Shown here one piece after another: positions 1,148 through 61,680 of a DNA stretch of 64,000 bases (positions within the stretch are counted from its first letter, which is position 1; each line of letters starts with the position of its first letter). The DNA comes from Lama guanicoe (taxonomy: Eukaryota). The notes under the pieces were generated by a model, which worked only from the letters and a program-made list of their open reading frames with translations, had not been told where the DNA came from and did no database searches. The stretch covers positions 2,676,508 through 2,740,507 of the forward strand of contig MU053588.1 of assembly GCA_013239625.1 (NCBI GenBank), written 5' to 3'. The translations under genes were made by a program, and so were the position numbers.

Positions 1148-2299
1148 ATAGGACCCATCACCATCTCCCAGGTCAAGGTGGAGGGAGCACACTCCAGGAA
1201 GTGTTCACATGTCAGAATTAAGCACTAATTTTTAGAGTCAGACAGACTGAGTCTCAAACCTCAGCTTCATCATTTATCTGTCATGCCCGACACTTGGGCA
1301 AGTGTCTGCTCCTCTTTGAGCCTCAGGTTTCCTCATTGGGAAAATGTGGGTACCTACCCTACAGGGTGGTTGTGAGAATGGAACTGAGACCCAGTATGCG
1401 GGCAGCTTGGTACATAGTAAGTGCTCAGTGAATACATCGCTGAGAGACAGACTCAGAGACTGCGGCTGAGGGAGGCAGAGGGACAGACAGACCCAGAAAG
1501 AGAGTGAGAAACTCAAGACAAAGTGATAGTGTGACCATGAAGGACACAGTAAGCATTCACTTATTCATTCAACAAACATTTATTGGTTACCTACATTTAT
1601 TGAGCCCTATTCTAGGCACTGGAGATGCAGCAGTGAACAAAACAGGTAAATACCCTGGCTCTCACAGAGCTAACATTCTGTAGGAGGGACAGATGATAAG
1701 GAAACAGCGATAAATATAGTAGTTCACAGAGCGACAGTTAAAATTCAGGCATCAAGTCCTGGGTTACCCTTCCTGGTTGTTGTTCTGCCAGCGTTCATTT
1801 TGATTGATCTGTGTCTACGTGTACAAAGTGCAAGGTAGTTTGATTATCTTCCTTGGAGTGTGGCAAGTGGAGCAGGGTTAGGAGGCACAAAGAAGGAAAC
1901 TGTGATACTGGAGGCTTTAAGAGGACAGGCATGGTGAAGAGATAACGAAAGATGGCAAGAAAACATGGAAGCCCAGAGACTGAAGAACAGAGAGACAGAC
2001 ATAGACACATGGGGAAATGAAGGCACACTGAGAGACAGGAAAGGACTGAGGGAGCTGGTGAGGGCCTGAGGGAGCTTGTGAGAGGCCGAAGGAGCTAGTA
2101 AGGGGGATGAAGGAAAAGTCAGGAGCCACCTAAGCCAGGCTGAAAGGCTGAAGGAAAAGCGGGGACCAGGATCACAGGGTGAAGGATCAAAACTATGCCC
2201 TGCCGGGCCCCTGGCACCTCCTCCTCAAACTGTGGGAGCCTGCACTGATCACTGCCTCCATTTCCCAACCTGGGCCAGGTCCTCAGCATCCAGCCCCCA

Positions 2300-2450
2300 G
2301 GGCCCTGCCAGTGATTCTGCCATGTTTCCTCTTTCTTCTCCTTGTGGGCCTGCCCCTCTGAAGCCAGGTCCGGGCCTCCCATGCTGGCCTGCCCCCAGGC
2401 CTGCCATCCCTCCCGGGACTGAGCGACCTCCTGCAGGGTCTGCTCAGGAT
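2300..2450 (+). pseudogene. CYP2 pseudogene exon 1 relic
   Basis: ALPVILPCFLFLLLVGLPL*SQVRASHAGLPPGLPSLPGLSDLLQ: hydrophobic anchor plus a degenerate LPPGPxPLPxxGNLLQ motif; in-frame TGA; no ATG. Confidence 0.6.
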
Positions 2451-2806
2451 CAGCAAGCAGGGAGGGAGCAAAGTGTGCGGGAGCCTAGCTTCCCCCTGCG
2501 TCCCCCGCCCTCTCCTGGCTGCAGACCGTGGTGGGCTTGGGCAGGGGCAGGATGAGGTCTGAGAGAGGGGAGGGCATGGGGAGATTTCCTCATCAGAAAC
2601 ATGGAGACACCCAGAGTCAGGGAGACAGCAAGAGACGGAGACAGACAAAGAGAGGAAAGGGGAGGGAAAGAGACACAGAGACAGACGCTGAGAATCCCGG
2701 AGAGAAATACAGAGACAGGGCAGAGAGACAGAAGGAGACAGAGACTCAGGGAGAGAAAGAACATGAGAGCAAGAGAGGGAGGCAGAGAGACCTCGAGACA
2801 GGAGCA

Positions 2807-2976
2807 GGGGGGAGGGCATAGCTCAAGTGGTAGAGAGCATGCTTAGCACATGTGAGGTCTTGGGTTCAATCTCCAGCTTATTTATTATTTAATTTATGTA
2901 TTAAGAATAAATAAATATATAAACCTAATTACCTCCCCTAATCAGAAAAAAAAGAGAGAAACTTTTTAAAACAAAC
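2807..2976 (+). mobile_element. tRNA-derived SINE (camelid Vic-1-like)
   Basis: A box tagctcaagtgg, B box gggttcaatc, tail aaacctaattacctcccc; near-TSD agacaggagca/agacaggaaca. Confidence 0.85.
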
Positions 2977-3649
2977 AAGACAGGAACAGAGAGTCACAGA
3001 AAGACAGAGACACACACACTGAGACCAAGAGACCAAGGGGGACAGAAATACAAAGGTGAGGAGAGCACAGGGCCAAGGCCCAAGGAAGGCGGCCCGGAGA
3101 CACGGAGAAATGACACAGAGACACTCAGGATCAGAGACACAGAGGCACAGAGATGCCTGGAGAGACCCAGAAACAGTGCGATGGAGACACAGGGGCAGCC
3201 CCAGCGACAACCAGAGATGGACAGACGGACGCGTGGCGAGGGGAGGCCGGGCCGCGGGCCGCTCGGAGGGCGCTGGGCTCTGGGTCAGTTCACCCCAGCA
3301 AGGCCCTTGTGGGAAGTGTCTTGGCTAGTGGTTAAGCACCTGAAGGCTGCTGCCAAAGGACCTAGGTTCGAATCTTGGTTCCAATGCTATCTGTATGACG
3401 GCTTGTGGGTTTTTTAGCCTCAGTGCCTCTCTTTTCTCACCTATAAAACGAGAATAATGTCCACTTCCCATCCCCAGGGATGCTGTGAGAATTCAGTCAG
3501 GTGACAGATCTAAAGCACTTAGACCCGGGCACATAATACTTAATAAACGTTGTTTTTCTGCTAAAGCCAATTCCTACGACAGGTTTGCTATTAGTCCTCT
3601 TCTGCCCATTTACATGTGACAGTGCGCTGTTGTCTCACAATAATGTTTT

Positions 3650-3975
3650 TAACTGCATAGGATTAAAAGCATTAAAGAAGCCAGGCACACAAAGTTATGT
3701 ATTGCATATGATTACATTTCTATGAAATATCCAGAAAAGGCAAATTCATGGACAGAGAAAGCAGATTAGGGGTTGCTGGGGACTGAGGGAAGGGAGAATG
3801 GGGAGCGGCTGCCCAGTGTACACAGGGCTTTCCTTTGGGGTGATGAGAAGTTTCTGGAACTAGATAGTGATGTGGTTGTACATCATGCATGTACTTCATG
3901 CCACTGAATTGTACACTTTAAAGTAGTCAAACGGTAAATCTTATGTGTGTTTTACCACAATAAACATTTTTTAAT
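3650..3975 (+). mobile_element. Old L1 (L1MB-like) 3' end
   Basis: tatgaaatatccagaaaaggcaaattcat...gtgatgagaagtttctggaactagatagtg...ttttaccacaataaa. Confidence 0.75.
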
Positions 3976-4045
3976 TTATAAATTCCCACAAAAGTCAATT
4001 TTATTAAAATAGTTACCAGAATGTTAAAAAAAAATAAACCAAATT

Positions 4046-4165
4046 TGGGGGGAGGATATAGCTCAGTGGTAGACTGCGTGCTTAGCATGCACGAGGTCCT
4101 GAGCTTAACCCCCAGTACCATCATTAAATAAATAAATAAACCAAATTACCCCCCACCAAAAAACT
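4046..4165 (+). mobile_element. tRNA-derived SINE (Vic-1-like)
   Basis: ggggaggatatagctcagtggtagactgcgtgcttagcatgcacgaggtcc. Confidence 0.85.
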
Positions 4166-4984
4166 GAAAAATGATCTTATAAAAATTTTTAAAATTTGTA
4201 CTGTATTATGTTCTTCTCATGAACATGTTAAATAAAAAAGACCTAGAGGCAGGTCTGTAAGCACTGTAATTTTAGAGTGGTGATGAGTCTGAATGACGTT
4301 TCCAAGGCTGAAGCTGTAATGTGCTATGAAAATACCTGTGGTTTCCACTGGTGATGAAGCCATCGCTTTGGACACGACTTTCCCTGTGATCTGCCTTCAT
4401 AACCAAAGGAAAGGCTAAATTTCAGAAGGTCAGTGGAAAAGATGCAATTTTGTTTCCCATCTAAGTTCATGTGCCCCCTGAATTCTAGTCGAGCCTGGAC
4501 CCTTGTTAAAGAATTCCTGGTCTAGAGGCTTCATACCTGGGTCCTGGAGTCCTGTAACCCTGGATTTAAAAGTTATTTCTGCCATGTGTAAGTTTCTACA
4601 AGTGGTGTCCTCCCTCAGCCTCTGCTTTTTCATCTATAAAACAGGGATTTATAAAATTTTTTGCAAATCGTCATAAGCATTAAACAAGAACAAGGACAGT
4701 GAATGAATCACCCAGATCACCCAGGAGGGCAGGAGCCAGGACCTGAGGTCAGGAAAGTCCACTTTGGCATCTCTCCAAGGTCAAGAAAGTGCAGGTTCCA
4801 CCCACTCAATGAAATGTGCCACAAAATGAACAACAATAAATAAAGGTCAGGAGGCAGAAAAAATTTAAGATATAGAAATCCCAGTTCCTACGGGGTATGG
4901 ACCAAATCTGTTTGGTGTTTTCAGCACCCAGTTCGGTGTTTGACTCACAGGAGGGGCTCAGAAGATGATCACGGCATGAATGAC

Positions 4985-5250
4985 TGTATTATGGGTTTCA
5001 GCTGTGTTAGCCAAAAATTGATATATTGAAGTCCTAACCCCCAGTATCTCAGAATATGACCTCTTATAAAAACCCTTATGGTGGCATTGGGCCCATCCAG
5101 ATAATCCAGAATAATCTCCCCAATTTAAGATCCTTAACATCATCACATCTGTAAAGTTCCCTACATCATGAAAGGCAACGTATTCCCAGGTTTTGAAGAT
5201 TAGGATGTGGAGATCTTCGGGTGGTGGGGAAGGGCATTATGACAGCTACC
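4985..5250. mobile_element. MaLR (MLT1-like) fragments
   Basis: gaagtcctaacccccagtatctcagaatatgacc and gggcccatccagataatccagaataatctccc. Confidence 0.6.
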
Positions 5251-5267
5251 ACATGTGACCTTCCTCT

Positions 5268-5630
5268 TGTTGCAAACTGAGTCTATGGGAAGCGACTCTG
5301 AAATGACATTAGCGCATAAGACCTCTATTAGGTCTGGGGGGTTGGCACCTGGGGGAGAGAAGGAAGGGGAGCGGGACTGGGGAGAGGGAGAAGTCAAACC
5401 ATGATGTAGTCTCTGGGGACATCTCCCGGACACTTTACCAGGCATTCTGGAGGTGCAGTGACCCTTCAGCGCTGTCTCAGGTTGGGCAAGATGTCTGGCC
5501 CCTGCACGGAGCAGCCAAGAGAGGGGCTGGCTGGGAAGGGGCTGACAGCTGAGGGCAGCCCAGCAGCAAGCGATTTAAGTCCTTTATTCCTAAGGACGGA
5601 TCTGGGCAGTGCGTCACGGCGTCCGCTTCA
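5268..5630 (-). mobile_element. Old ERVL LTR (LTR16-like)
   Basis: End ggatctgggcagtgcgtcacggcgtccgcttca and internal gctgacagctg resemble the LTR16 family as I recall it. Confidence 0.5.
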
Positions 5631-5788
5631 GGATTTACCAGAACTCTCAAAGTGAGGCCAATTCCCTAAATATACATTTCTTCAGTATAAGTAGAATTGG
5701 CTAATACATCCTTGAAATACTTGCTCAAAAGTAGGTAGGCGCCCAGGGCGACAACTTTCTCTTTCCCACCCTCTTCTGAATGGAGCAG

Positions 5789-6412
5789 AACTCATACAGC
5801 AAGAGATTGACTGTGTGGTGGTGTGACAGAAATGGCAGGCCAGCCAAGAAACAAGCACGACTCAGAGCGTTGGAGTACTCAGATTGATTACGCCGGTGGG
5901 CTCAGGGGGGCTTCTGCTCCAAAGCTCTGAGCACCTCCAAGACGTGTGCATGGGGTTTTATATGGTTAATTACAAGCTTGGGGTATTCGGCCAATAGGCA
6001 TGCAACAGCTTTAGCAGCATCATTGTTACAAAAGCAGAGGCAGGGAGGCAGCAAACCAACATTTCAAGGCCAGATATGTCTCTCTGAAAATCCAGCTGGC
6101 TAGCAAAAAAAACATGAACAGGGAATCAGCAAACTGACACTTATTAACTTAGATTTACAAGTTACCCCAGCAGAACTCAAATCAGTAAACTGACACTTGT
6201 TACACTTAGATTTGTGAGTTAGCTTGTTAGCCCAGCCTGGCTTTTCCTTCACAGTGGGGCCAGAGAGATGGCCCTGCCTGGGGGATAGAGCCCAGATGCC
6301 ATACACAGATGCTGTCCTCCATGAGATCCTGAGGTTTGCAGACATCCAACCTTTGGAGGTGCCCCATGCTGTCACCCAGAACACCCAGTTCCGGGGATTC
6401 CACATCCCCAGG
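5789..6412 (+). pseudogene. CYP2 pseudogene exon 7, split by a solo LTR (5789-5821 + 6258-6412)
   Basis: Rejoined pieces total exactly 188 nt: [62 protein letters not shown]. Acceptor cag intact; donor reads AT instead of GT. Confidence 0.92.
5822..6253 (-). mobile_element. Solo LTR (ERV1-like), copy A
   Basis: TG...CA ends; 4-bp TSD GTGG (5818-5821 and 6254-6257); TATAAAA on minus strand; homologous to 7732-8141. Confidence 0.92.
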
Positions 6413-7365
6413 ATACAGACTGAGTATGGGTACAGACACTTGGGTTCAGCTGGTGTTTCCGGTCTGCTAGATAGAGACGCAAGACTGGGCCTCGCAGTAT
6501 CAGGTTCTTGAGTTCTTCCATAGCCTGACTCCCACCCCACCTCCCTCAACCCAGCAAGTCTGGGATTGCGAGCTCCCTGATGGAACACCAAAGCACAACA
6601 GTTGAGAACTAGGACTCTGGAGTCATCTAGAATCCCTGCACCTCCACTTCCCAGCTGTGCAACTCTAGGCAAGTGACTCAACATCTCTGAGCCTCGGTCT
6701 CTTCTTCTATACAATGGGTATAATAACCATACCTCTGCTGTGTGGTTGTGAGGATCCAGTGGGTTGACGGTATATAGTAAATTCTGAAAAATGTTACTGT
6801 TCTGATTATTTTTACAACCAGATGTCTGATTATTCTTGTTCTGATTATTTTTACACGAAAGCCAGAATGGTCTTATAAAACCTGTTAGGTCACATCCTTC
6901 CACTGCTCAAAACTCCTCCATGGCTCCCATCTCACTCTAAGTGAAAATCAAGGGACCCTGCCTGATCTGCTCTCCAATTTCCCACTTGATGTTCATCTCC
7001 TACAATCTCTTCCTAGCTCACGCCAACCCACTTGACCCCCTCAGTGTCCTTACATATTCTAGGGCTTCTTTCATTCTCAGGGCCTTTGTGCTGCTGTTCC
7101 CCAGCTTGGAAAGCCCTTTACTCAGAGATGCTCACAGCTCACTCTCTCCTCTCCTTCAGAACTTATTCAGAAGTCACCTTCTCCAGGAGGCTTTCCCTGG
7201 CCCCCCAGTGAACAGTGGCACAGTGTATAGGGAAGGGTCTGCCTGGTCTTTCAGAGGGACGGGATGGGTGGAGATGTCACCATGAAGGGGAGATGGGGCT
7301 CCTAGGGAACCACGTCTGGGGAGAGAAGTCCCGGGTCTATGCCTACCATCGTGATCACAGAGGAT

Positions 7366-8211
7366 CTTAAGTCGGTTTCCTAGAAACAGACTGTGAGATG
7401 GCAGTGTGCACACAGGAGGTTCACAGGGGAAGCTTCTAGGGAGTGACACCTGCGGGGAAGCTGGGGCAGCAAGATGGGTTAGCAGGTGGCAGTGGACGGT
7501 GACACAGCTACACAGAAGACCCAGCCAGTCCCACAGGGAACTCTGGGACTATGCTGCCCCCCAGAGCTGTCCCAAACCAGAGCAAAGAGCTGGCTTCATA
7601 CTCCAGCATCAACCAGTGGTTGGATGTGGCTTTCCTCGGGGAGGAGCTCTGACTGAGGCCAACAACCTCCCTTTGGCCAAAGGCAATTCGTGGAAAGCGA
7701 TCAGGTCTGAGCTGTTAGCCACAGACACACTTGTGAAGGAAAAGCCCAGCTGGGCTAACAAGCTAAGTCACAAATCTAAGTGCATCAAGTGTCGGATTAC
7801 TGATCTGAGTTCTGCTGGGCTAACTCATAAATCTGAAGTTTAGTGTCAGTTTACTGGGCTAACAAGCTAACTCGTAAATCCAAGCTCAACAAGTGTCAGT
7901 AACGTGATCTGTTCCAAATTGATAAGCTCCAGTGTACTGATTCCTTGCTTTTTGTTGTTTGAACCTTATTGGCTAATAGCCCCATACTTGTAATTAACCC
8001 TATAAAACCTCATGTGCACGTCTTGGAGGTGCTCAGAGCTTCGGAGCAGAAGCCCCTCTGAGCCCGCCGGCGTAATAAATCTGAGTACTCCAACCCTCCG
8101 AGTGGTGCTTGTTTCTTGGCTGGCCTGTCATTTCCGTAACACACTCAGTAGCTAAGAGTTAATGTCTCAGTCAGCCAAGGAATTCTGGGCGGCCACCATG
8201 TTGTCCACTAC
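7366..8211 (-). mobile_element. Old ERVL LTR (LTR16-like) interrupted by solo LTR copy B
   Basis: Starts tcttaagtcggtttcctagaaacagactgtgaga and ends ctgggcggccaccatgttgtccactaca. Confidence 0.55.
7732..8141 (+). mobile_element. Solo LTR (ERV1-like), copy B, same family as copy A
   Basis: TG...CA ends; TSD CACT (7728-7731 and 8142-8145); TATAAAA near 8001, AATAAA near 8074; repeated gggctaacaagctaa units in U3. Confidence 0.92.
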
Positions 8212-8522
8212 ACAGGGCAGGACACCAGCGGAGGTCCAACCTTGTCTCAGTATTTGGTAGCATGAGATGAACTAACAACCAGCAAATAAAGCCAGCCTTC
8301 TTCTCCTTCTCTGACAAAGAGACCTTCCCAATGACCTGGAAAGCTTGGATACTGGATACTCTCAGACTTTCTCAAAGGAATGCAACAGTTCAGGGAGGGC
8401 TGGCGCTGGCCCAGGGTACCTGACCCACGTCCCTTTCCTTCCCACTTCCGGGTCCATCCTGTACCCCAGCCCACATGTGCCAAGCTCCATCCATGCCCAT
8501 AACCAGCCACTCCACCACCAGG

Positions 8523-9122
8523 TGAGACCAGAAGGAAGGGGGCAGGGCACAGCCATTAAAAGAATGACACAGCAATTAGCACCAAGATGGTGGACGATTC
8601 AACTCCCAGTAAACCTTGAGCTTCAATAGCTAGACGCTCGTTGAAATACAATAGCATGCTAAATGGTACTCCCACAGGTGCCAGGACAGTTTCAAGTTTG
8701 ACCATAAAAGGTCAAAGAGTGGGTGACAGCCCAGTTTCTGGGAACCCCACCCTCTTCCCCAAAGAAGTTGGAATAACCCTCCTACTTGTTAGCATATGAA
8801 GTTACCCAGCCCAAAGCAACGCAATACGAGGCCTTGCGGCTGCCTCTGTCACTCCCTCCTCTTTGGAGTGTGTGACTACTTTTACTTTAAACTGAGCACC
8901 TAACCCCAACACCTTGTGGCCTTTCTCTTGCCTTCTGAAACAGCCTGCACTCTGTCTATGGAGTATGTATGTCTGAATAAATCCACCTTTACTCAACTGT
9001 GGCTCTCTCTTGAATTCTTTCCTGCACAAAGCCAAGGACCCACACTGGATAGGGTCATGTCCCGGGGACTCAACCAAGACCTAGGACATGCCCTCCTCTG
9101 GCCCCACATTTTTTCTCTATCA
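8523..9122 (+). mobile_element. ERV1-type solo LTR
   Basis: TGAGA...ATCA ends; AATAAA near 8976 followed by a typical U5 ctcttgaattctttcctgc..aagccaaggaccc; TSD not clean. Confidence 0.7.
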
Positions 9123-9384
9123 GGGGTGTGCACGCAGCAGGGATGCAGGTTGTCCTTGGAGGATGGGCCTAGGGAAGTGGACTCCTGGGCTCTGGATGTG
9201 GACTTGAAGCCATTGCACAGAGAATTCTGCAGTCCCAGGTGTGCAAAGGGACCTTCAGAGCAGAGTCATGGGCACCAAAAAACCAGGGACCCTCAGCCCA
9301 CAGGCCGCTCCCCCCATTTTACAGGCAGGGCTGGAGGAGGGTCAGAGGGCCTAGATCTGTTTCTTTCTCTCTTTTTTCCTCCTT

Positions 9385-9935
9385 TTAAAAAAATTGTAGT
9401 AAAATATAAACAACATAAAATTTACCCTTTTAACCATCGTTACGTGTAGAGTTCACTGGCATTAAGCACATTCACATTTTGTGCAAGCATCACCACCATG
9501 CGTCTCCCACACTCCATGTGTTGCAAATCTGAATCTCTGTCCCCATTAAACAATTCTCTATTCCCCTTCCCCTCACCCAGCCCCTGGCAACAACCCTTCT
9601 AGCTTCTGTCTCTATGAATCTGGCCACTCGAGGAAACTCATATAAGTGCGATCATACAGTATTCATCCTTTTGTGACTGATGTATTTCACTTAGCATAAT
9701 GTCCTCAAAGTTCATCCACGGTGTAGCACATCTCAGACTGTCTTCAGTTTTTAAGGCTGAATCATATTCCCTTGTGCGGATATAGCACATTTCGTGTATC
9801 TATTCATCTGCTGATGGGCTCTTGAGGTGTTTCTACCTTTTGGCTGTTATGAATAATGCCATCATGAACATGGCCGTACAACTCTCTCTTCAAGTCCCTG
9901 CTTTCAAATCTTTTGGGTACATACCCAGGTCTGGA
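9385..9935 (-). mobile_element. Old L1 (L1MA/MB-like) 3' end
   Basis: aacataaaatttacccttttaacc...cttagcataatgtcctcaaagttcatcca...ggctgttatgaataatgc. Confidence 0.8.
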
Positions 9936-10829
9936 TCTGTTTCTGAGAAGTCCTTTCAGACACTCTCTCCAGGCCTGAGTTGCAGCAGAAATATTGAGCT
10001 TCAATCACCTCCAAAATCACCCCCAAATCTCACCAAATTTCAGTGAGCCCACAATGCACAGGTCTTGGTGAGGGGTGCCAGTGGCAATGGTGAGGGGTGC
10101 CAGGAAGGAGAGAAGTTTGCCAGGGGAGTGCCCAGATCTTGGTCCTCAGCAGCCTGAAAGTTCCCGAATGTCCTTAGTGTTGGCTGGATGTTTGCTTGAA
10201 TGAATAGCAAAAGTGACCTTAGGTGGAGAGGTTAAGAAATCTATGACTTGCTCAAAAGCAGTTAAAATCGCTAAAGATGATCTAAAATATGTGAAAGTTC
10301 TCACAATGGGCTGAAATCTGCTTTTGTGGTCAGAAGTGATGTGAATAATACCAGAGGGGCCACTAGCCCCTTCTGATGCACGTTTGGGAAAATAAAAAAA
10401 GAACCTTCTCCAGGCAAGTGGCCTGTGGAATGCATGGTATGAAGAAAAAGGGCCCATCTGGGATTTTCATCCTGCTGTGCAAGGCACAAACTTTGTGACC
10501 TCATGTGGCAGCCCTGAGTAATAATTATCACTTGTTATGTGCCAAGTGATTCTCAGTATAACACAGAATCCTTTGAACAGATACTATTCTTGTTCCTATT
10601 TTGCAGACGGAAACACTGAGGTTCAGAGAGAAGTCACTTGCCCAGTCATGCAGCTGGGAAGTGACAGAGCTGGGGATTGAGCCCAGGTTCACGGACCCCA
10701 GAGACCATAGTCTTCCCACCCTGCTGCTCCCCAGGGCCGAGGAAACCAGGAAGCTTTGGACCAGAAGCACATCTCTGGGTGCTTTCCTGGGTGAGAAGCT
10801 GTGAAGTTCTGGGCAGACTCCTTCCACAA

Positions 10830-10975
10830 GGCACCATGGTGTTCCTGCTGCTCCACTCTGTCCTCCACAACCCTGACCAGTTTCAAGATTCATCCTCCTT
10901 CCAGCTCGAGAGTTTCCTGGATGCCAGTGGAACTTTTCAGAGGGGGCTCTCTGAAAAATCTGCCCTTCTCTGCAG
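10830..10975 (+). pseudogene. CYP2 pseudogene exon 8
   Basis: GTMVFLLLHSVLHNPDQFQDSSSFQLESFLDASGTFQR then frameshift to LPFSA; 146 nt versus canonical 142; acceptor CAA and donor AT are both dead. Confidence 0.88.
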
Positions 10976-11247
10976 ATCAGTGTCCAAGCCTTTGTCTAGG
11001 CTGGGACAGCTGTGTGGCTGTGGCTCCAGGGAGGATGCCTTCCCTCTCTGCACCTCCTCCTATAAAATAAGCAAGTAGTTTTCTGATCGCTGATTTGGAA
11101 GACATGGCACAGGCCAGGCTCAAGTGACGAGGGTGGATGGGGAGCACAGATGACCTCAAGCACAGTTAATCCTGAGGTCAATCCTCACCCAGGAGCTGTA
11201 CAGGGAGCCAGGCTTGCAAAAGAAAAAAAAAACACCCCAAGAAAGGG

Positions 11248-11752
11248 TTTTTTTTTTTTAACATTTTTTATTGATTCATAATCATTTTACAGTGTTGTGT
11301 CAAATTCCAGTGTTCAGCACAATTTTTCAGTCATTCATAGACATATACACACTCATTGTCACATTTTTTTCTCTGTGATTTATCATAACATTTTGTGTAT
11401 ATTTCCCTGTGCTATACAGTGTAATCTTGTTTATCTATTCTACAATTTTGAAATCCCAGTCTATCCCTTCCCACCCNNNNNNNNNNNNNNNNNNNNNNNN
11501 NNNNNNNNNNNNNNNNNNNNNNNNNNNNNNNNNNNNNNNNNNNNNNNNNNNNNNNNNNNNNNNNNNNNNNNNNNNNNNNNNNNNNNNNNNNNNNNNNNNN
11601 NNNNNNNNNNNNNNNNNNNNNNNNNNNNNNNNNNNNNNNNNNNNNNNNNNNNNNNNNNNNNNTGCTGCTATGCATTGGGGTGCAGGTGTCGTCCTGAAGT
11701 AGATTTCCTTCTGGATACAAGCCCAGGAGTGGGATTCCTGGGTCATATGGTA
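11248..11752 (-). mobile_element. Young 5'-truncated L1 with TSD, containing the assembly gap
   Basis: Poly-T followed by L1 3' UTR/ORF2-end sequence; direct repeat aagaaagggtttttt at 11239 and 11753. Confidence 0.85.
11477..11662. other. Assembly gap (186 N)
   Basis: Run of N. Confidence 1.
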
Positions 11753-13030
11753 AAGAAAGGGTTTTTTTTTAAATGTCCGTTTGCTAAAAAAAAAATTTTT
11801 TTAATTAAGCTTAATCCTCCACATTCTAAACAGCACGTTCAATCATTCAAAATACTAAATACTTTTTAAATCACTTTTGTTGTAGTTACCTAAAAACAGG
11901 TAGCTATGCAAGTACTGGCTAAGATTGCTATTTAAACTAGTCTTTAAGTACACATACAATGCAAACACTTGGTAAAAAATTAGTCAGGCAGAAGAGTATG
12001 TGAAATGAAAGTAATGTCTTCCTTCTCGATCCTGTTTCTAAGAGTTTAAGTCCTAAACGTAGCCGTAAGCACACTAATGGTTCCTTGGGTATCCTTCAAA
12101 ATTTGTTTAAGCAAATGCAAGCATAAATATGAATATATGTATACGTTTTTCAAAAGTAGGTCATCCTAGCATCCCATTGTGGGCTTCTTTTTTTTAACCA
12201 TCCATCTTGGATATTGTACCATCAAAGCATGCAGTGTTTTAACTCATGCTTCTTAATGGCTGCATAGCTTTCCATTGCTAATGCCCCATCAGGTATCACT
12301 GATTCCCACACTGATGGGCATTGCACTGTTTCCAGTTTTTCACTTTGCTCCGGTGTACATTGCTTTGCGTGGGTGTTGGGCCTCCTCTGGGAGTACTGCT
12401 GAAGGAGCAATCTCTGGGAGTAAACTCTTGGGTCACATGCATACATTTAAGAAGCTGCTGCCTTCACTTTGTTATATACCTGGAACTAACACAATATTGT
12501 AAATCAACTATAGTTCATAAAAAAAGAAAAGGAAAGAAGAAGAAGCAACTGCTTGATTTTATGAGCTGCTACTGAAAGACTGAAGAACGCAGACCCAAGG
12601 ATATCTAAAATCTAAAGCAGGGCTGATCCACGGCATTCCCATCTGACTATTCGGCGTATCTGAAACATGGGTAATCTCGGGGTCTGTGAAAGCCACAGCA
12701 CTTCAGACATGGTCGCTGTGGGAAGACACGGAAAGGCCTCAGTCTATCTCTTCCTCAAACTGAGGGGCAGCTTCCCTTCTCAGATGGAGCTCCACACTCT
12801 CTATGACCACCTGGGAGGTACCTGGTGGACAAGAGTATGTGGCATCTCGGCTTACAGGAGAATGAGAGTTCCATGTTCAAGGAGGAAATCAGGAAAGATC
12901 TTGCTAAAATCATAGTCTTAAACCATCAGTGGCTCGGACAGTGGCTCAGAGGTCATCTCCGATCTCTTCCCTCTCCCTGTCTCTGTCTCTCCCCCTTCAT
13001 CTTTGATCTCGTGTCTCCCTGCTTCCCCAG

Positions 13031-13212
13031 GATGCCAAGCATGCCCCAAGTAGTCTCTAGCCTGGACTGAGCTCTTCCTCTACCTGATGTAGCTGCCAGG
13101 GCACTTCTCACCCATCTTGCCACTGCTTCCTGCAGCTCTGGACCTGCAGCCCCTGGACAGGGATTTCAGGAAGTAGCTGCCTCCTTTCCAGCTCATCCTG
13201 CAACCACAGAAT
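13031..13212 (+). pseudogene. CYP2 pseudogene exon 9 (heme-Cys region)
   Basis: cag|GCQACPK*SLAWTELFLYLM*LPGHFSPILPLLPAALDLQPLDRDFRK*LPPFQLILQPQ; colinear with a 182-nt CYP2 exon 9; TAG at 13051, 13090 and 13174. Confidence 0.88.
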
Positions 13213-13497
13213 CTCCTGCAGAGCCAAGCCCACTGCCCACACTGACCAGCCATCACCTGGCTTGGATCCTGTGCCTTCTCTCCATTGTCTGGCCTCACTT
13301 TCCCTACATGCACAGCACAGAAGCTTTATAGGGTCCACATGTAGGCTCTGGAGTCTGACATCTTGGTTTGGGACTTCCTTCATTCACTATTGTATCCCCA
13401 GCTTCCTAGAATAGGATCTGGCACACAGTAGATGCTCAATGAATGAAATTTTTTTGCTGAATGAATGAGTTTTTTAAAATTTTAATTTTATTTATTT

Positions 13498-26907: not shown

Positions 26908-27790
26908 CCCTATGGGGTGGTCCTGATCTTCATGGTCAAAGGACAGGAAGGGCCTCTTGAATCATCCCTTCCTATCCAGGAGGTGGCCAGGACAGAAGTC
27001 ATCTGACTGTTCAAAAACCTCAGGCCAAGAAAAAACTTGAATTCTGGGCATGCGATGTGGTTTGAGACAGGGAGAGTGTCTAGTCTGGCACAATAGTTAG
27101 TGGTGTGAACTCTGGAGACAGGCTGCCTGGGTTTAAATCCCAGAGTTTCCATGAAGTTGCCATGTACCAGCTGTGTGACTTCCACCAATGAACTGTTAGT
27201 CTCTGAGCCTCAGTTCCCTCTCCTATGAGGATGGTTACTGTATCTATCTCATGGCATAACTATGGAATTCACAGTGTTACCACGTGTCCCACACATAATA
27301 AGCCCTCAAAATATTAACTTCATCGTCTTAAATTTTAATGTTGGTAAGAGCTGCTGTTTGTTCCCAGCCGTGTATTAAATGCTTTCCCTACAAGATTATA
27401 TTGAATCCTCACGAAACTCTTGTGAGAGGTGTATTTTGCATACAGGTATTCGTTTTATACCAGTCTGAGGGGCAGACTGGTCAGGTCATAGGTTATAGGT
27501 GGTGGAACAGGAATTCTAACCCAAGTCCGATTTTTGTAGCCTCAAATATAAATCACCTCTTCAGAAAACAGGATTTCTAAAAGTTTCTGTCTTATACAAA
27601 TGGCCAATAGGCACACGAGAAAAATGCTCCATATCGCCAGTTATCAGAGAAATGCTAATCAAAGCTGTCCTCATTTCAGAAATGAATAAAATGGGGCTCA
27701 GAAATAGCAAATTCCCAAAGCCCCGGCAGAGCTGGATTCATACTCAGGGCTAATCATCTCCTGCGCCGGGCTCCCTATGGAGCCGAGAAG

Positions 27791-37224: not shown

Positions 37225-37890
37225 GGCGGAGGGAGGTAGGAGCTGGGGAGGGCGGCACGGGGTGTGGCCTCCAGAAGGAGGCCAAAGTCTCTGGCTTCCA
37301 GGTTCCTCTGATCGGCCCGCGCACCACCTGGGGTCCAAGACCTGTCTCCGCCCCCTCGAACCTGGGTGACCGGGGAGACAACCGTTCAAGGGTGTGTCCC
37401 CGACACCCGGCGGCATCTGCAATCTGGGAGAAAGATATCCGGCGGCGGGGAGAGAACCCAGCTCCGCAGGCAAGGGGAGAGGCTCGCTGCCCCGCCTCCC
37501 TCCACCAGATTTCGTCGGGGAGGGAGCCTCCCGGCTCCCGCCCCCCGACAGGCCCAGCCGCGTGGAGCGTCTGGGAGCGAAGAGAAGCAGCCAGCCCGCG
37601 GAGATGGAGGCGGCGGGCACCTGGGTGCTGCTGCTGCTGCTCCTGCTGCTCCTGGTGCTGACGCTGGCGCTGCCCGGGATCCGGCGCCGAGGCCACCTGC
37701 CCCCGGGGCCCACGCCGCTGCCGCTGCTGGGGAACCTCCTGCAGCTCCGGCCTGGAGCGCTGTACTTGGGGCTTTTGCGGGTGAGGGGCCGCCCGCACGC
37801 CCTGGCTAGATGCGGGGGTCGAGGGACCGGAGAGGAAAGGGACACACCCCTGGGAGAGAAACCGTAGTGCGAGCGCAAAGCGGCCGTCGT
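37225..37890 (+). promoter_or_regulatory. CYP2S1 CpG-island promoter with GC boxes
   Basis: High CpG density over exon 1; GGGCGG/CCGCCC boxes near 37224, 37348 and 37538; no clear TATA box. Confidence 0.8.
37604..37780 (+). CDS. CYP2S1: CYP2S1 exon 1 (membrane anchor, PPGP hinge)
   Basis: gagATGgag start; MEAAGTW...GLLR; donor GTGAG at 37781. Confidence 0.96.
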
Positions 37891-40800
37891 GTATGTCCTA
37901 GAAGAGGCAGGCAGGTGAAGGGTCCCGGATGGGGCTATGGATGCCCCGGGGTGGGGAGGGAGCAAGGGTCCAGGGCTGAAAAGGGTCAGGGGATCCTGAG
38001 AAGAGAGGATCCTGGAGTGCGGGGCCAGGGCCAGGAGGGGCAGAATCGTGCCCACAGAATCCTGGAGAGGGATCCGGAGTGGAGAGCAGGACCCAGAGTG
38101 ACAGGAGCCTGAAGTTAGAGAGGCCCCCAGAATCCTGGGAAGGTGGAGTGGAGGCAGCAGGGAGGGGACAAAAACAGAGAAATAGGTGTCCTCAAGTAGA
38201 AGAGAAACTGATAGTGTGATGATGGTGGCTGGTCCCGAGCAGAGGTCCTGGGGAGATACAAGTGAGCTATCCAGAGGAGTGGGCAGAGAAGAAAAGGGAG
38301 TGGGACCCCCAGAGGAGGGGGAGGCAGAGGCTGGAGGGTTCTAGGAATCTATCTGCAGAGACAGATGGGAATGGGGAAGAGGGGGGTAGGAGGGAGTTGG
38401 AAGTTCTGCAACAGAAGAAAGGAAGGAGAGCAAGAAGGCTGAGACAGTCCCAACCCTCTGGGTGATTGGGAAGAGGCCAGAGGATCCCCATTCAAAAAGA
38501 GTCTGGGGTCTTCCAGGACATGGCAAGGAGGGTGGTGATCTTGGGGAGAGATGGTGCCAGTGCTCCATGGTTAACTGCTCCAGAATTTGAGGGTTTAGCG
38601 GTGATTGAAAAGGGTGGCTAGTTTTGAGGGGAGGGAGCTGAGGGATTGGGGGAGACCAAAGATGTAGCTGCCCATTTTTACTGCTGAATGTCTGAGCTGT
38701 GGGCATAGGGGTAGGTTCTGGGTTGCCCCAGAGTCAGAAATTGGGGCTCTACAGGGGGTAAGGGGATGGGACCCAGAGAGCGTGTTGGGTGAGAGTTTGG
38801 GGAAGGAGGACTCTCTGGGGAGGGGACCTGGGAGCCTGGCACAGAAAAAAAGAGAACTAAGCCCCCAGCGGGGCTGTTTCACTATTTCGGTTTAGGGCAG
38901 AGCAGGAGCGTTTCCTCTTAGGTGGCTCATCCAGCGACAAGGGGCACGATGGAGACACACAGACTTTAAGAGGCAGTAGCCTCCCCCCACAGCACCTGTC
39001 CCCCTCTCTCTCCCTGCCCCCAGCTGAGTAAGAAGTACGGACCAGTTTTCACTGTGTACCTGGGACCCTGGCGGCGTGTGGTGGTCCTGGTTGGGAGCGA
39101 GGCTGTGCAGGAGGCCTTGGGAGGTCAGGCCCAGGAGTTCAGCGGGCGAGGGATAGTGGCGACGCTGGATGGGACCTTTGATGGCCATGGTGAGTCATAA
39201 GCAGCCTGGAGGCATCTGAGGCTTGCACTCAGAGCCTGCCAGCTCTTACTGTTCTGCAACCTTCCATGCACGATTCAGTGTCTCCGGACCTCTGTTTCCT
39301 CATCTATAGTTGGTGTTTGTTTTGTTTTGTTTTTATGGAGGGTAGGTAATTAGGTTTATTTATTTATTTTTAGAGGAGGTACAGGGGATTGAACCCAGGA
39401 CCTCCTGCATGCTAAGAATGAGCTCTACCACTTTAGCTATACCCTCCCCCTCCTCATCTGTAAAATGGGGTGATAACAGTGCCTGTTACATAGGACTGTA
39501 GTAAGGACTGCACGAGGTAAGAATACATGGTTGTAATAGTCTTATTACTGCTCCAGGCAAAGTCCCCCCCAGGGCCAGGAGGAAGAGGGAAGACATCTGA
39601 AGCACTGAGAATGAGTAGGCAAACACTCAAAATGTGTAAACTATTCTCTGTGTTAAGACTGAAAGCAGGAGGCTGGAGTGCGGGGACACAGCAGTGACTA
39701 AACCACCTCAGTCCTGCTCCCCCAGAGCACACAGGCCAGTGGGGAGACAGACCCGTCACCAGTGGGGAGACAGACAGTGACAAGGCCAGAAAGGTCAGGG
39801 CTGGCCTGGGGGAAGCCCTGAGGCGGTGGGAATTGGAGGAGGCACCCGGCCCAGCCTCTTCCGTGGAGGACATCCAGGAAGTCTTCCTGAGGGTGTGTCT
39901 GAGCTGAGACTCACAGCGTGACTGGGAAGGGTGTTCCAGGCAGAGGGACAAGCATGGAGGTGAGAGAAGACGCATTCATTCATCAACTGACAACTTTTCA
40001 TTATGCCTGCCTTGGGACTGGGGACACAGTAGTGACCAAGACAGCTGTGGTGACCTGTCTTACTGTGAGAGAGTGGGGCTTTGCCATAAGACATGAGGGG
40101 AAAGAATAGAATTCTAAAATGAGAGGGACAGCCTTGAGAGCAGGACAATGGGGCCCTTTCCTGGCCCAGGGAGCAGAGGGAGTTGGGGTGTGAGGAATGG
40201 GAGGAATCAGGGAAGGCTTCCCAGAGGAGGTGACATTTGAGCTGAGACCTGAAGGTTGAGTAGAGTTAGTTCAGTGAGGACGAAGAGATGAATTATCCTG
40301 GCAGAGGGAACAGCAAGGGCAAAGGCCTAGAGGGGACATCCTGGCATCCTTGAGGAAGTGAGAGAAGGCCAGTGCGACTGTAGTGAGATGAGTAACAAAG
40401 CTGGAGCGGTCTGCAGAGCCTGATTACATGGGACCTGAGTCAAGCCAGCATGTTTGGACTTTGGGTTTTCCTGGGAAGGGATATGGTCGGAGTTAAAAAG
40501 ATCTTCTGGTTGCGGAGTGGAAGCCCAGGCAGGGGACTGGGCTGGACCAGGACTGGGGCCATGGAGTGGGGAGGGGAGATGGTCAGGAGAGGAATGCAGG
40601 GCTCTGGCCAGGGGGGTGGTCAGTGGCTGAGACTAGGAGGAGAGATGCTGGGTCCAGTTTGGGACACAATGGAGGGGTGGGTAGACAGGGGATACCCAAG
40701 AGGAGGCGTCTAGGAGGCCACTATGGGCTGGCATTCTGCAAACAGGAACAGCTCAGAGCAGGGAAGGGTCCATCCAGAGCAAGTCTCTTGGATAAAGGAG

Positions 40801-43800
40801 GGAAACGGTTCGATTCCACCCTCTTCCCTCCCTGTTCAACCTCCTAACGACGTGGGGCATGGGACCCAACAGTACTCCATAAATGCTGGGGTGAAGGGAT
40901 GAATGGATAGATGGTTGGAGAGAAGAGAGGGAGGGAGGGAGGGAGTAAAGGAAAGAGGAAGAAGTAAGGATAAATGAATGGGTGGATGAATAGAGGAATA
41001 AAAATATGGATAGACAGTGCTCACTTCGGCAGCACATATACTAAAATTAGAATGATACAGAGAAGATTATCATGACCCTTGTGGAAGGATAACATGCAAA
41101 TTCATGAAGCGTTCCATAAAAATATATATATATATATGGATAGACGGAAGGAAGGAATAAATCTTCACTCACCCTGCTTAATCATAGAAGGCTCAAGGAG
41201 CCTGGATAATTTCAGTTACCAGCCTCTCAGGAGAAGGTCACCCTGTGACCCAAGGTTAGGCATTTATTGAGCATCTCTGGAGTCCTCATCCCTGGGCTAG
41301 GCTGGTATGGACTCAGGACAGGGCACCTCACTGGGAGGAAGGGCTGCTACTGTCCTGGGGGAGGGGCCGGTCCCTCCTTGAGCCTAGCCTTCTGTGCAGG
41401 GGTTTTGTTCTCCAATGGAGAGCGATGGAGGCAGCTGAGGAAATTCACCACGCTGGCTCTGCGGGAGCTGGGCATGGGGAAGCGAGAGGGCGAGGAGCTG
41501 ATCCAGGCGGAGGCCCAGCATCTGGTGGAGTCGTTCCAGGGGACAAAAGGTCAGCGGGGCCGGTGGCCTGAGTGTAGGGATGGCCTTCCCTCTGGGGCTG
41601 GGCTGGGGACTCTGGTCACCTCCCTCTCTCTCCTTCTCCACCTTCCATCTCTGTCCTGCTGTCTCCCTGAAGGTCTCTGTGTCCCTGGGACTGTCATATC
41701 ACTCCTTCTGCCTCTTTTCTTTCTGTTTTTCTGTTTTTCTCTCCTGCAAGTCTGTCCGTCTCTCTCCCTGTCTCTCTTTCCCTGTGGCTCTCTCTTTTCC
41801 TGACTATCTGTTGTCCCACACCCCCTTCCTTATCTGTGTCTCTTGGTCTCTCCCTGTCTATCTGTCTCTGTCTCACTCTCTGTGCTTGTCTCTTTCCAGT
41901 CGTGTCTGGTTCCCACTTCATATCCAATCCGCCTCCAGGTCAGCTCCCCTCTGCCCAACTCCATCCAGCCCTCCTCCTTGCCCCTCCTCCCCAGGACAGC
42001 CATTTGATCCCTCCTTGCTGCTGGCCCAGGCCACCGCCAACATCATCTGCTCCCTCGTCTTCGGCCTCCGCTTCCCCTACGACAGTGAGGAATTCCAGGC
42101 CATGGTCCGGGCAGCTGGTGGCACCACCGTGGGGGTCAGCTCCCCGTGGGGTCAGGTAAGTGGATGGGACCCCTCTCCGGCCACTTTCCCCAAAGGCTTG
42201 TGTCCACCTCTTCCAGGTAACCCCAGAGCGCTCGGTCCGCCTGCCCCTCCACCCTGGTGCCAAGTCAGGTCCCCATGAAAACAGCTGTCTTTCTCCCCAC
42301 AGACATATGAGATGTTCTCCTGGCTCCTGCCGCGCCTGCCAGGCCCCCACACACAGCTCCTTGGCCACTTGGGCACCCTGGCTGCCTTTGCCGTCCAGCA
42401 GGTGCAGCGGCACCAGGGAAGCCTGGACGCCTCGAGCCCCGCACGTGATGTTGTGGATGCCTTCCTGCTGAAGATGGCAAAGGTGGGGGCATTTGTGGGT
42501 TGAGGGGGGCCTCCTGAATGGCACTGGCAGCCTGGCTGGTCCCCAGCCAGGTGTAGCCGGGACATACTGTCAGCCTCCATCCTTCTCTGCACGTGTCCCT
42601 GTGGATCTGTGTCTCTGCCTGGGTGTGCATAGCTCTTCTTTCTGGTACATTGTTCTCCGCCTCCCCCCACCCCACACTCACCTCAGGTGTGTTTGAGTCT
42701 CTTGCATCTCTCCCCATCCTCTTCCCTCCAATCTCAGGCCCAGCTTAGGCCCCCTGCCCAGTGACCTGCCACCAGCAATCCCCACCAGCCCTTCTCCCCA
42801 TCCCTACCTCTCGCCACCCACACAGGACATTTCCTGTGAATTACAATCATTTGCTTATGAAACCCTGCAATCTCAAATTATACTAATAAAGTCCACTTTA
42901 TTAATTAGGTGAGAACAATCATCTTGTGAGAAAATTAGAATTAAGATGACCCCTGTGGAAATACCTAGTTTTGAATTGTACAGACTTTGCAATGATGGGA
43001 GATATTCAGGGCCACATCCTTGAATAAATGCAACCACCCCCTTGGTGGAGAGAGAGATTTTCTTAACTCTGTGGCCCTATTTATTTTCCCTTTCACTTTT
43101 TTAATTTGTATTTCTTTTTTGTGGGGGAGGTAATTAGGTTTCTTTATTTCTTTAAAAAAAATTTTAGTGTGGGAGGTATTTGGTTTATTTATTTATTTTT
43201 AGAGGAGATACTGGGAATTGAACCCAGGCCCTTGTGCGTGTTGAACATGCGCTCTACCACTGAGTTCTACCCTCCCCTCCTATTTATTTTTTTTTTTATG
43301 GAGGTACTGGGGATTGAACCCAGGACCTCATGTATGCTAGGCATGCACTCTACCACTGAGCTACACCCGCCTCTTTCATTTTTCAATTTAAAAAAGAATG
43401 TAATTGTAGTAAAATACACATAACACTTCCCATCTTGGCCACTTTTAAGTGTACAGCTCAGTAGTGTTCATGACATTTGCATCACCACCTTTGATCTCCA
43501 GAATGCTTTTCAACTTGCAAAATTGAAATTCTATACCTGTTAAAGAAACTCCCACCCTTCCTTCTGCCAGCCCCCAGCAAACACCCTTCTTTTTGTGTCT
43601 CTATGAATTTGATGACTCTAGGAACCTCCTGTAAGTGGAATCACACAGTATTTGTCCCACTGCGGTTTATCTCACTTAATGTCCTCAAGGTTCATTCATG
43701 TTGTAGCGTGTGACAGGACTTCCTTCCTTTTTAAGGCTGCCTCATATTCCATCGTATGGCTATGTCACATTTTCTTTATCCATTCATCCATCAGTGGACA

Positions 43801-54535: not shown

Positions 54536-61680
<7,145 letters not shown>

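Follow-up and report, generated by a model that had tools for sequence, protein, structure and literature searches.

The window that we analysed, a stretch of 64,000 nucleotides from the genome of Lama guanicoe, carries the remains of a cytochrome P450 gene of the CYP2 family upstream of an intact CYP2S1 gene and of AXL (Table 1). The relics of exons 1, 7, 8 and 9 span positions 2299-13245 and are arranged in order on the + strand, as an initial annotation of this DNA had proposed. CYP2S1 has GT-AG borders at all eight introns and a single terminal stop, is 81% identical to CYP2S1 of Tamandua and groups with it in our tree with 100/100 support. The CYP2ABFGST cluster sits between AXL and EGLN2 (PMC9597770) and is described as containing only six subfamilies: 2A, 2B, 2F, 2G, 2S and 2T (PMC4964396). 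The assignment of the locus to this cluster, based on the neighbouring CYP2S1 and AXL, is therefore upheld.

Table 1. Features of the CYP2 relic and its neighbours (positions within the 64,000-nt window)
Feature	Positions	Strand	Remarks
Exon 1 relic	2299..2448	+	membrane anchor, proline-rich hinge
Interval expected to hold exons 2-6	2449..5788	+	3.3 kb, no exon detectable
Exon 7 relic, 5' part	5789..5821	+	intact AG acceptor
Solo-LTR-like insert within exon 7	5822..6253		432 bp, TG...CA ends
Exon 7 relic, 3' part	6258..6412	+	K helix ExxR, SRS5
Exon 8 relic	10830..10975	+	meander, 146 nt
Exon 9 relic	13031..13245	+	heme Cys kept, heme Arg lost
CYP2S1, intact	37604..48170	+	nine exons, 495 codons
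AXL, first Ig-domain exon	55761..55985	+	PDB 2c5d receptor UFO, E 2.1e-39; synteny anchor

In a frameshift-tolerant scan of positions 1-37500 with the exons of the mole protein, exons 1, 7, 8 and 9 scored 146, 230, 127 and 156, whereas the highest scores in 10 shuffles were 42-48 (46 for exon 1). Exon 1 has lost its start codon, carries a TGA at 2359 and AT at its donor, and lacks eight codons and one further codon relative to the mole protein; it matches the protein of the star-nosed mole Condylura (P0133) with 61% identity over 54 aa (E 4e-12). Exon 7 lies in two pieces that total 188 nt, the size of exon 7 in CYP2S1. Ten of the 11 residues of its 5' part equal those of a squirrel protein (P0017), and the 3' part, which has an open frame and AT at the donor, is 83% identical to the protein of the mole Talpa (P0001) over 52 aa, the runner-up match reaching 62%. 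Exon 8, with AA at the acceptor and AT at the donor, measures 146 nt against 142 in CYP2S1, implying a net gain of 4 nt and hence a frameshift; it is 66% identical to P0001 over 44 aa. Exon 9 begins in the same phase as exon 9 of CYP2S1, contains TAG stops at 13051, 13090 and 13174, and matches P0133 with 60% identity over 70 aa (E 3e-16), its extra C-terminal tail resembling a 10-residue tail of the mole proteins. The sizes given earlier for exons 7 and 8 (188 and 146 nt) proved correct, whereas the 182 nt given for exon 9 fell short, the frame running to a terminal TGA at 13243-13245 (215 nt). The motifs EILR, FLDASG, LPFSA and CQACPK*, in which the second C is the heme cysteine, are all present as reported, and the four remaining exons follow the nine-exon layout, exon sizes and phases of the CYP2 family.

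Exons 2-6 were not found by tblastn, HMM scan or frameshift-tolerant scan. Those of the mole scored 38-41 in the frameshift-tolerant scan of positions 1-37500, which is background level, and 25-39 on the + strand of the interval between exons 1 and 7, against maxima of 34-42 in 40 shuffles. A borderline score for exon 2 was dismissed, since it reached 39 against a shuffle maximum of 36 in the short interval and of 39 in the long one. Exons 2-6 were thus probably deleted. The solo-LTR-like insert that splits exon 7, absent from the initial annotation, is flanked on both sides by GTGG, a 4-bp target site duplication; an inverted copy related to it (87-89% identical) lies at about 7732-8141.

Altogether the relic has lost its start codon and exons 2-6, and bears four stops, one frameshift, four broken splice sites and the solo LTR. 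It falls short of a functional P450, as judged by open frame, I-helix, ExxR, meander and heme motif, the I-helix exon being absent. The gene is dead and encodes no enzyme. It differs at 40 of the 149 positions on which mole and squirrel agree, and its terminal branch in the full-length tree measures 0.34, against 0.03-0.08 for the moles. Between 70 and 76% of the sequence words of positions 5600-6600 occur in 14 DNA sequencing runs from 5 organisms and 6 studies, indicating that this stretch is present in several related species; the word shares of 0.05-0.16 in six RNA or RNA-guessed runs carry no weight on expression.

Over exons 7-9 the relic shares 119 of 161 residues (74%) with Talpa, 114/161 with Condylura and 90/161 with platypus, against 80/161 (50%) with the best 2F protein and 64-73 of 160-161 with 2A, 2B, 2C, 2G, 2S and 2T. 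Over all its remaining exons it is 68% identical to Condylura and 74% to Talpa, and 38-46% to named CYP2s. The intact orthologue shares 47-53% with named CYP2s, which lies within the CYP2 family (>40% identity). By convention a subfamily is delimited at 55% identity (PMC4860681); with Condylura P0133 the six cluster subfamilies share 49-53%, and the frog, reptile and monotreme members of its own lineage reach 55-64%.

A maximum likelihood tree of 45 full-length rows (LG+G4) gave the same picture. The relic, the moles and the squirrels form a placental group (100/100), with the relic beside the talpids (94/83); this group joins the monotremes (mammals, 100/99), then the sauropsids (amniotes, 99/95) and finally the frogs (entire lineage, 99/97). 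The resulting order, frogs, (sauropsids, (monotremes, placentals)), matches the species tree. A mixture-model tree of exons 7-9 recovered the relic with mole and squirrel at 100/99, and the whole tetrapod lineage at just 63/96 on these exons alone. The lineage clade sits in a basal fork without resolution, apart from the 2C-like rows, in a tree that has no named 2H row.

The initial annotation had seen no fit to any subfamily, and indeed the relic nests in none of the known ones. Approximately unbiased (AU) tests rejected membership in CYP2B (p 2.9e-7; Condylura 51-52% identical), CYP2F (p 1.4e-37; 51%), CYP2G (p 4.8e-44; 49-51%, the platypus lineage protein reaching 55% to macaque 2G), CYP2T (p 3e-76; 49% over exons 6-9), CYP2S (p 1.2e-6; 49%) and CYP2A (p 8.5e-4; 53% to a partial 2A). 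The 2A reference was a single partial row, part of a chimeric hamster model, and the 2T references came from two chimeric models labelled 2F, whose exons 6-9 we assign to 2T by their motifs. Judged from these comparisons, the relic lies outside 2A, 2B, 2F, 2G, 2S and 2T. That it is instead a decayed duplicate or chimera of one of these six, its origin hidden by a long branch, is highly improbable. Exon 7 has CYP2B6 as its best solved-structure match (E 2.6e-16), the orthologues are named '2B4-like' or '2G1-like' in databases, and 2F is, at 50%, the best named subfamily on exons 7-9; however, the same exons are 74% identical to the mole against 40-50% to the cluster subfamilies, all six are rejected by the AU tests, and the intact, short-branched orthologues likewise stand outside them. 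The earlier impression of a 2B/2G-like exon 7 and a 2F-like exon 9 does not reflect a chimera, since exons 1, 7, 8 and 9 all match mole proteins. The position of the relic outside every known subfamily in the trees agrees with the proposal of an old pseudogene rather than a recent duplicate. Its ACP does differ from the comparison CYP2s, as had been remarked, and this is a signature of the lineage: CP follows the heme arginine in 11 of 14 lineage rows and in 0 of 16 comparison rows, which rules out decay as its source.

The initial annotation had suggested that the lineage may be lost, a view that we could not sustain. Complete models in star-nosed mole, platypus and echidna show that it is old yet not lost, and the clade reaches beyond mammals to frogs and, among reptiles, to turtles, lizards and tuatara. 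In the talpids, XP_012588925 of Condylura (named '2B4-like') and XP_054553165 of Talpa (named '2G1-like') are tree orthologues of the relic and share with it the CP of the heme motif and the C-terminal tail; they keep an open frame, unlike the relic with its missing exons, stops, frameshift, broken splice sites and LTR. The monotreme proteins XP_028920464 (platypus) and XP_038623387 (echidna), also named '2B4-like', are full 502-aa models, sister to the placental group and 63-64% identical to Condylura; they lack the C-terminal tail and have CL rather than CP in the heme motif. Tuatara 'CYP2AR1' (UniRef A0A8D0HFE6 and isoforms) and the '2G1-like/2B4-like' proteins of turtles, lizards and frogs belong to the same clade, at 55-62% to Condylura. 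Each of 17 named frog species has one clade entry; Chelydra and Callospermophilus have two differing entries each, so that single copy is not a strict rule. A search of 50% protein clusters added only marmot and tortoise fragments to the clade, and the ESM Atlas gave generic CYP2 clusters only. No camelid member appeared among the 13 matches of one protein search or the best 120 of another. Vicugna CYP2F5 is present in the protein database that yielded no camelid lineage member.

Among placentals the predicted proteins differ in completeness. None of the 8 squirrel entries retains the full set of eight checked motifs: three Ictidomys models lose the usual C-terminus, and in two Callospermophilus models the AGxETT motif is altered and a piece of exon 8 is missing. 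The Talpa model is without exons 1-2 and that of Galemys is partial. Such damage could mean that in every placental the gene has died or is dying, and that the mole proteins are read-throughs of young pseudogenes. We consider this unlikely: all eight motifs are present in Condylura P0133, as in platypus and echidna, its alignment to platypus, at 65% identity, has 2 gap positions in 497 columns, the mole branches are short, and the Talpa and Condylura proteins are 91% identical. The intact status in moles is judged here from predicted proteins.

It is also possible, though we give it less than even weight, that the clade is the curated subfamily CYP2AR, already catalogued with its mammalian members or pseudogenes. 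The tuatara member bears the UniRef name 'family 2 subfamily AR member 1', lies inside the amniote clade and is over 55% identical to both Condylura (272/487, 56%) and platypus (286/490, 58%); the review file of PMC13144609 also employs the name CYP2AR. That file, however, sets CYP2AR beside CYP2H, CYP2AH and sauropsid CYP2C, and the lineage does not group with 2C-like rows, so the tuatara protein may owe its label to projection. The main text of the same study describes its amphibian and sauropsid subfamilies as without mammalian representatives, and the mammalian lineage members all bear automatic 2B or 2G names. Among the tree labels of its Fig. EV1, F6YJ27, M7AJM4, I3NBB7 and the tag ORNAN are absent, and three Condylura 2B4/2B5-like labels, which may or may not include the lineage gene, stand among the 2B labels. 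In the full-text literature we found nothing for CYP2AR or CYP2AR1 (2AR1 with P450 gave unrelated matches only) and no description of the lineage gene in mammals, subscription papers and curated P450 lists lying outside the search.

The locus is disabled, retains introns and lies beside CYP2S1 and AXL, as a unitary pseudogene at its ancestral locus would; outside this genome the evidence for that locus is synteny at the level of contigs and fused models in reptiles and frogs. In 9 of 10 comparable species of frogs, lizards and turtles, the exception being Tiliqua, the protein of the lineage and one resembling 2F or 2G come from contigs of equal length, and in two turtles a 2G-like gene and the lineage gene are merged into fused models. 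Very probably, then, the relic is a unitary pseudogene (as judged from protein databases) of a subfamily so far overlooked, the seventh of the CYP2ABFGST cluster, a gene of the frog-amniote ancestor retained in some tetrapods. According to the trees it is the orthologue of a mostly single-copy gene of that ancestor, which would have lain in what became the cluster. This gene would still have been there in early placentals, and would have died long ago in the lineage of Lama guanicoe, leaving a non-processed copy to decay in place. On balance we also favour, with less assurance, a history in which monotremes and moles still have a working enzyme of this subfamily, squirrels are now losing it, and most other mammalian lines lost it independently.

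Judging from its motifs, the intact gene in star-nosed mole, platypus, echidna, reptiles and frogs would encode an ordinary ER-anchored heme-thiolate monooxygenase. By analogy with its neighbours CYP2F, 2G and 2S it may work in an epithelium on a narrow and conserved substrate, a suggestion with a little under an even chance; broad liver detoxification ranks below it and seems rather unlikely. Identity in SRS2+3 between mole or platypus and reptile or frog is 9-11 of 20, compared with 9-11 in 2F, 3-4 in 2C and 15 in 2G. Stable single-copy P450s tend towards endogenous substrates (PMC1866355). The repeated loss of this lineage in mammals speaks against an indispensable endogenous function. Thomas's rule reportedly applies to genes whose loss is rare.

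Among loci of drug metabolism, the CYP2ABFGST cluster is one of those studied most. A 2026 phylogeny of 975 CYP2 sequences recognised amphibian and reptile subfamilies without mammalian representatives (PMC13144609). An additional subfamily, intact in moles and monotremes, would correct both that statement and the six-subfamily picture, would mend the wrong '2B4-like' and '2G1-like' labels that skew CYP2B and CYP2G counts, and would offer a clean example of repeated gene loss. If the seventh-subfamily reading is true, relics beside CYP2S1, possibly also in cattle, dog and human, would date each loss. The pseudogene described here, without a function of its own, marks the presence of the gene at this locus in early placentals.

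The relic shares with the CYP2ABFGST subfamilies a common cluster, the strand of CYP2S1 and the phases and sizes of exons 7-8, and differs from them in that its lineage forms a separate clade whose intact orthologue is 49-53% identical to theirs. Human CYP2T2P/2T3P and CYP2G1P/2G2P and the CYP2C23/2C44 lineage likewise stand for CYP2 lineages that certain mammals keep and that have died in others (PMC4076195, PMC9597770). The CYP2T, CYP2G and CYP2C23/2C44 cases have well-known intact members in rodents or carnivores; for the lineage described here, in contrast, moles and monotremes are the only mammals found in which it seems to be intact.

Relics of exons 1, 7, 8 and 9 of a CYP2 gene lie on the forward strand, at the positions where the initial annotation had placed them (see table). 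That annotation was also right to size exon 7 at 188 nt but made no mention of the solo-LTR-like insert that interrupts it; it likewise recognized exon 9 but ended it too early, as the frame continues for a further 33 nt with a tail resembling that of mole proteins. When mole exons were compared with window positions 1-37500, exons 1, 7, 8 and 9 scored 146, 230, 127 and 156, against shuffle maxima of 42-48 (10 shuffles); exons 2-6 scored 38-41 in the same region, no better than shuffled DNA (10 shuffles). These five exons, I helix included, are absent from the 3.3-kb interval between the relics of exons 1 and 7, and the assembly gap in intron 8 is unable to hide them because they belong upstream of position 5789.

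Features of the pseudogene and its surroundings
Feature	Position	Strand	Size	Remark
Exon 1 relic	2299-2448	+		exact borders
Exon 7 relic, two pieces	5789-5821 and 6258-6412	+	188 nt combined	
Solo-LTR-like insert in exon 7	5822-6253		432 bp	4-bp target duplication
Second solo-LTR-like element	~7732-8141			intron 7; opposite orientation to the insert
Exon 8 relic	10830-10975	+	146 nt	
Assembly gap (N)	11478-11662			intron 8
Exon 9 relic	13031 to TGA at 13243-13245	+		
Inverted lone exon 8 stub	26938-27024	-		resembles second half of CYP2 exon 8
CYP2S1	37604-48170		495 codons	intact

The relic cannot yield any protein. Exon 1, besides lacking its start codon, is shortened by two in-frame deletions and interrupted by a TGA at 2359; exon 8 has AA at its acceptor and a net +4 frameshift; exon 9 contains TAG at 13051, 13090 and 13174, and its heme-motif arginine is gone. 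The splice donors that survive, at 2449, 6413 and 10976, all read AT instead of GT, probably by coincidence. The terminal branch of the relic measures 0.34 changes per site, compared with 0.03-0.08 in moles, and the relic differs at 40 of the 149 positions conserved between moles and squirrels. At typical neutral rates the decay would have taken tens of millions of years, which would place the loss before the camelid stem or early in it. The LTR in exon 7 is 87-89% identical to the nearby copy in intron 7, and is therefore probably old too.

The neighbouring genes are CYP2S1 and AXL. CYP2S1, although intact, has AGTVTVS in its I helix and lacks the acidic residue normally present there; the same motif occurs in Tamandua CYP2S1 and is therefore a trait of that subfamily. 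With an exon 8 profile the inverted stub scored 17.9 bits, whereas 20 shuffled windows gave at most 10.7, and its top tblastn match was CYP2S1 (55% over 31 aa). A nearby search for further exons found none, and the stub is possibly a very old fragment.

Searching 5.8 billion proteins with the larger half of exon 7 returned 13 matches, among which a Talpa occidentalis protein named '2G1-like' stood out at 83% identity, the next reaching 62%. Its 90% cluster contains a complete protein from Condylura cristata. Among the best 120 of 3132 matches to the Talpa protein were those of squirrels (75-83%), desman (83%), echidna (68%), tuatara (61%), turtles and lizards (56-62%) and frogs (53-60%), with true 2B and 2G proteins lower (49-54%); the platypus protein falls in one cluster with that of echidna. 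A FastTree built from the relic and 147 fetched proteins gathered 66 rows in a single clade with a support of 99.

The main tree (full-length alignment, 45 rows, LG+G4, bootstrap/SH-aLRT) groups the relic with the two moles (94/83), then with squirrels (100/100), monotremes (100/99), sauropsids (all amniote rows, 99/95) and frogs (99/97). Orthologues should branch in the order of their species, and these do. Subfamilies 2B, 2F, 2G, 2S and 2T form separate clades (100 each). A mixture-model tree of 56 rows built on exons 7-9 only gives 100/99 for the placental group but just 63/96 for the whole lineage. Rows were picked from the fetched proteins for species and subfamily coverage, excluding near-duplicates, fragments and fused models; the exceptions were 2A, represented by part of one chimeric hamster model, and 2T, represented by exons 6-9 of two chimeric '2F' models that we assign to 2T by their motifs. 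Unnamed proteins, presumed to be 2W and 2K, served as the outgroup.

AU tests rejected placement of the relic inside 2F, 2B or 2G, and equally inside 2T, 2S or 2A, bearing out the initial view that it lies outside the known mammalian subfamilies. Ten columns are diagnostic of the clade; two lie in surviving exons and the relic carries both, one being the proline that follows the heme cysteine. Identity of the Condylura protein is 49-53% with the six cluster subfamilies and 55-64% with clade members from outside the placentals; by the 55% convention (PMC4860681), these values fit a subfamily of its own. We consider it very likely that the relic, a genuine but dead gene copy, is an orthologue belonging to an old tetrapod CYP2 subfamily that is missing from the standard mammalian cluster picture.

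Several database models named CYP2F or CYP2A (P0372, P0373, P0375 and P0072) are chimeric, combining neighbouring cluster genes as either 2F with a 2T-like end or 2A with 2B-like parts. The Pogona '2F3-like' lizard protein (P0404) joins the mammalian 2T-like rows (100/99), hinting that CYP2T may also be older than mammals.

Of the 10 frog, lizard and turtle species listing both a clade protein and one resembling 2F or 2G, 9 have the two on contigs of equal length. Fused gene models join a 2G-like gene to the clade member in Chelonia and Platysternon, and another CYP2 to it in Elgaria. These contigs and fusions indirectly support cluster membership at chromosome scale only.

The suggestion that this CYP2 lineage had been lost fails, as the Condylura, platypus and echidna proteins belong to the clade and carry 8/8 motifs; Talpa has 7 (its model lacks exons 1-2), and the Galemys model is partial. 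All eight squirrel entries (ground squirrels and marmots: P0016, P0017, P0018, P0021, P0023, P0135, P0208 and P0433) fail at least one motif check because C-termini are lost, the I-helix motif is altered or parts of exons are missing. This resembles recent decay, but some of it could be model error. The damage varies by genus (Ictidomys lacks the C-terminus, Callospermophilus has an altered I-helix motif, Marmota models are partial) and may reflect recent parallel loss. Among the rows examined, no clade protein came from marsupials, birds, crocodilians, snakes, primates, carnivores, bats or ungulates; only 7998 candidates were scored, unannotated genes being invisible. Since the list extends down to paralogues, any full-length orthologue would be expected on it.

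In the accessible text of PMC4964396, PMC9597770, PMC3786927, PMC4076195 and PMC3342878, the cluster consists of six subfamilies. That of PMC13144609 says of its amphibian and sauropsid subfamilies that none is represented in mammals, and has CYP2AR only in its review file, as a CYP2H neighbour. The tuatara clade member is labelled CYP2AR1 in UniRef, a name that could denote this CYP2AR or another group; a literature search for CYP2AR or CYP2AR1 returned no paper. The gene was not found in mammals in the literature searched, although curated nomenclature lists, subscription cluster papers or the tree sequence files of PMC13144609 could hold it, and we lean slightly towards the mammalian branch being undescribed.

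Judged by its motifs, the intact enzyme would be a normal microsomal P450. Each of 17 named frog species has a single clade entry, and the substrate-recognition regions retain a distinct pattern from frogs through moles. At presumed SRS positions (2B numbering), SRS2+3 identity between mole or platypus and reptile or frog is 9-11/20, equal to 2F, above 2C (3-4) and below 2G (15). We tentatively propose, at somewhat under even odds, that the living enzyme would act in an epithelium on a narrow, conserved substrate. Broad hepatic detoxification appears less likely, other roles taking up the remaining probability; how often mammals have lost the gene speaks against an essential role. Comparison with known P450s would fit a narrow epithelial substrate: in the accessible text of PMC1866355 endogenous substrates are typical of stable P450s, and in that of PMC4964396 nose and lung are sites of expression for 2S1 and 2A13, both neighbours in the cluster, with 2S1 acting on eicosanoids.
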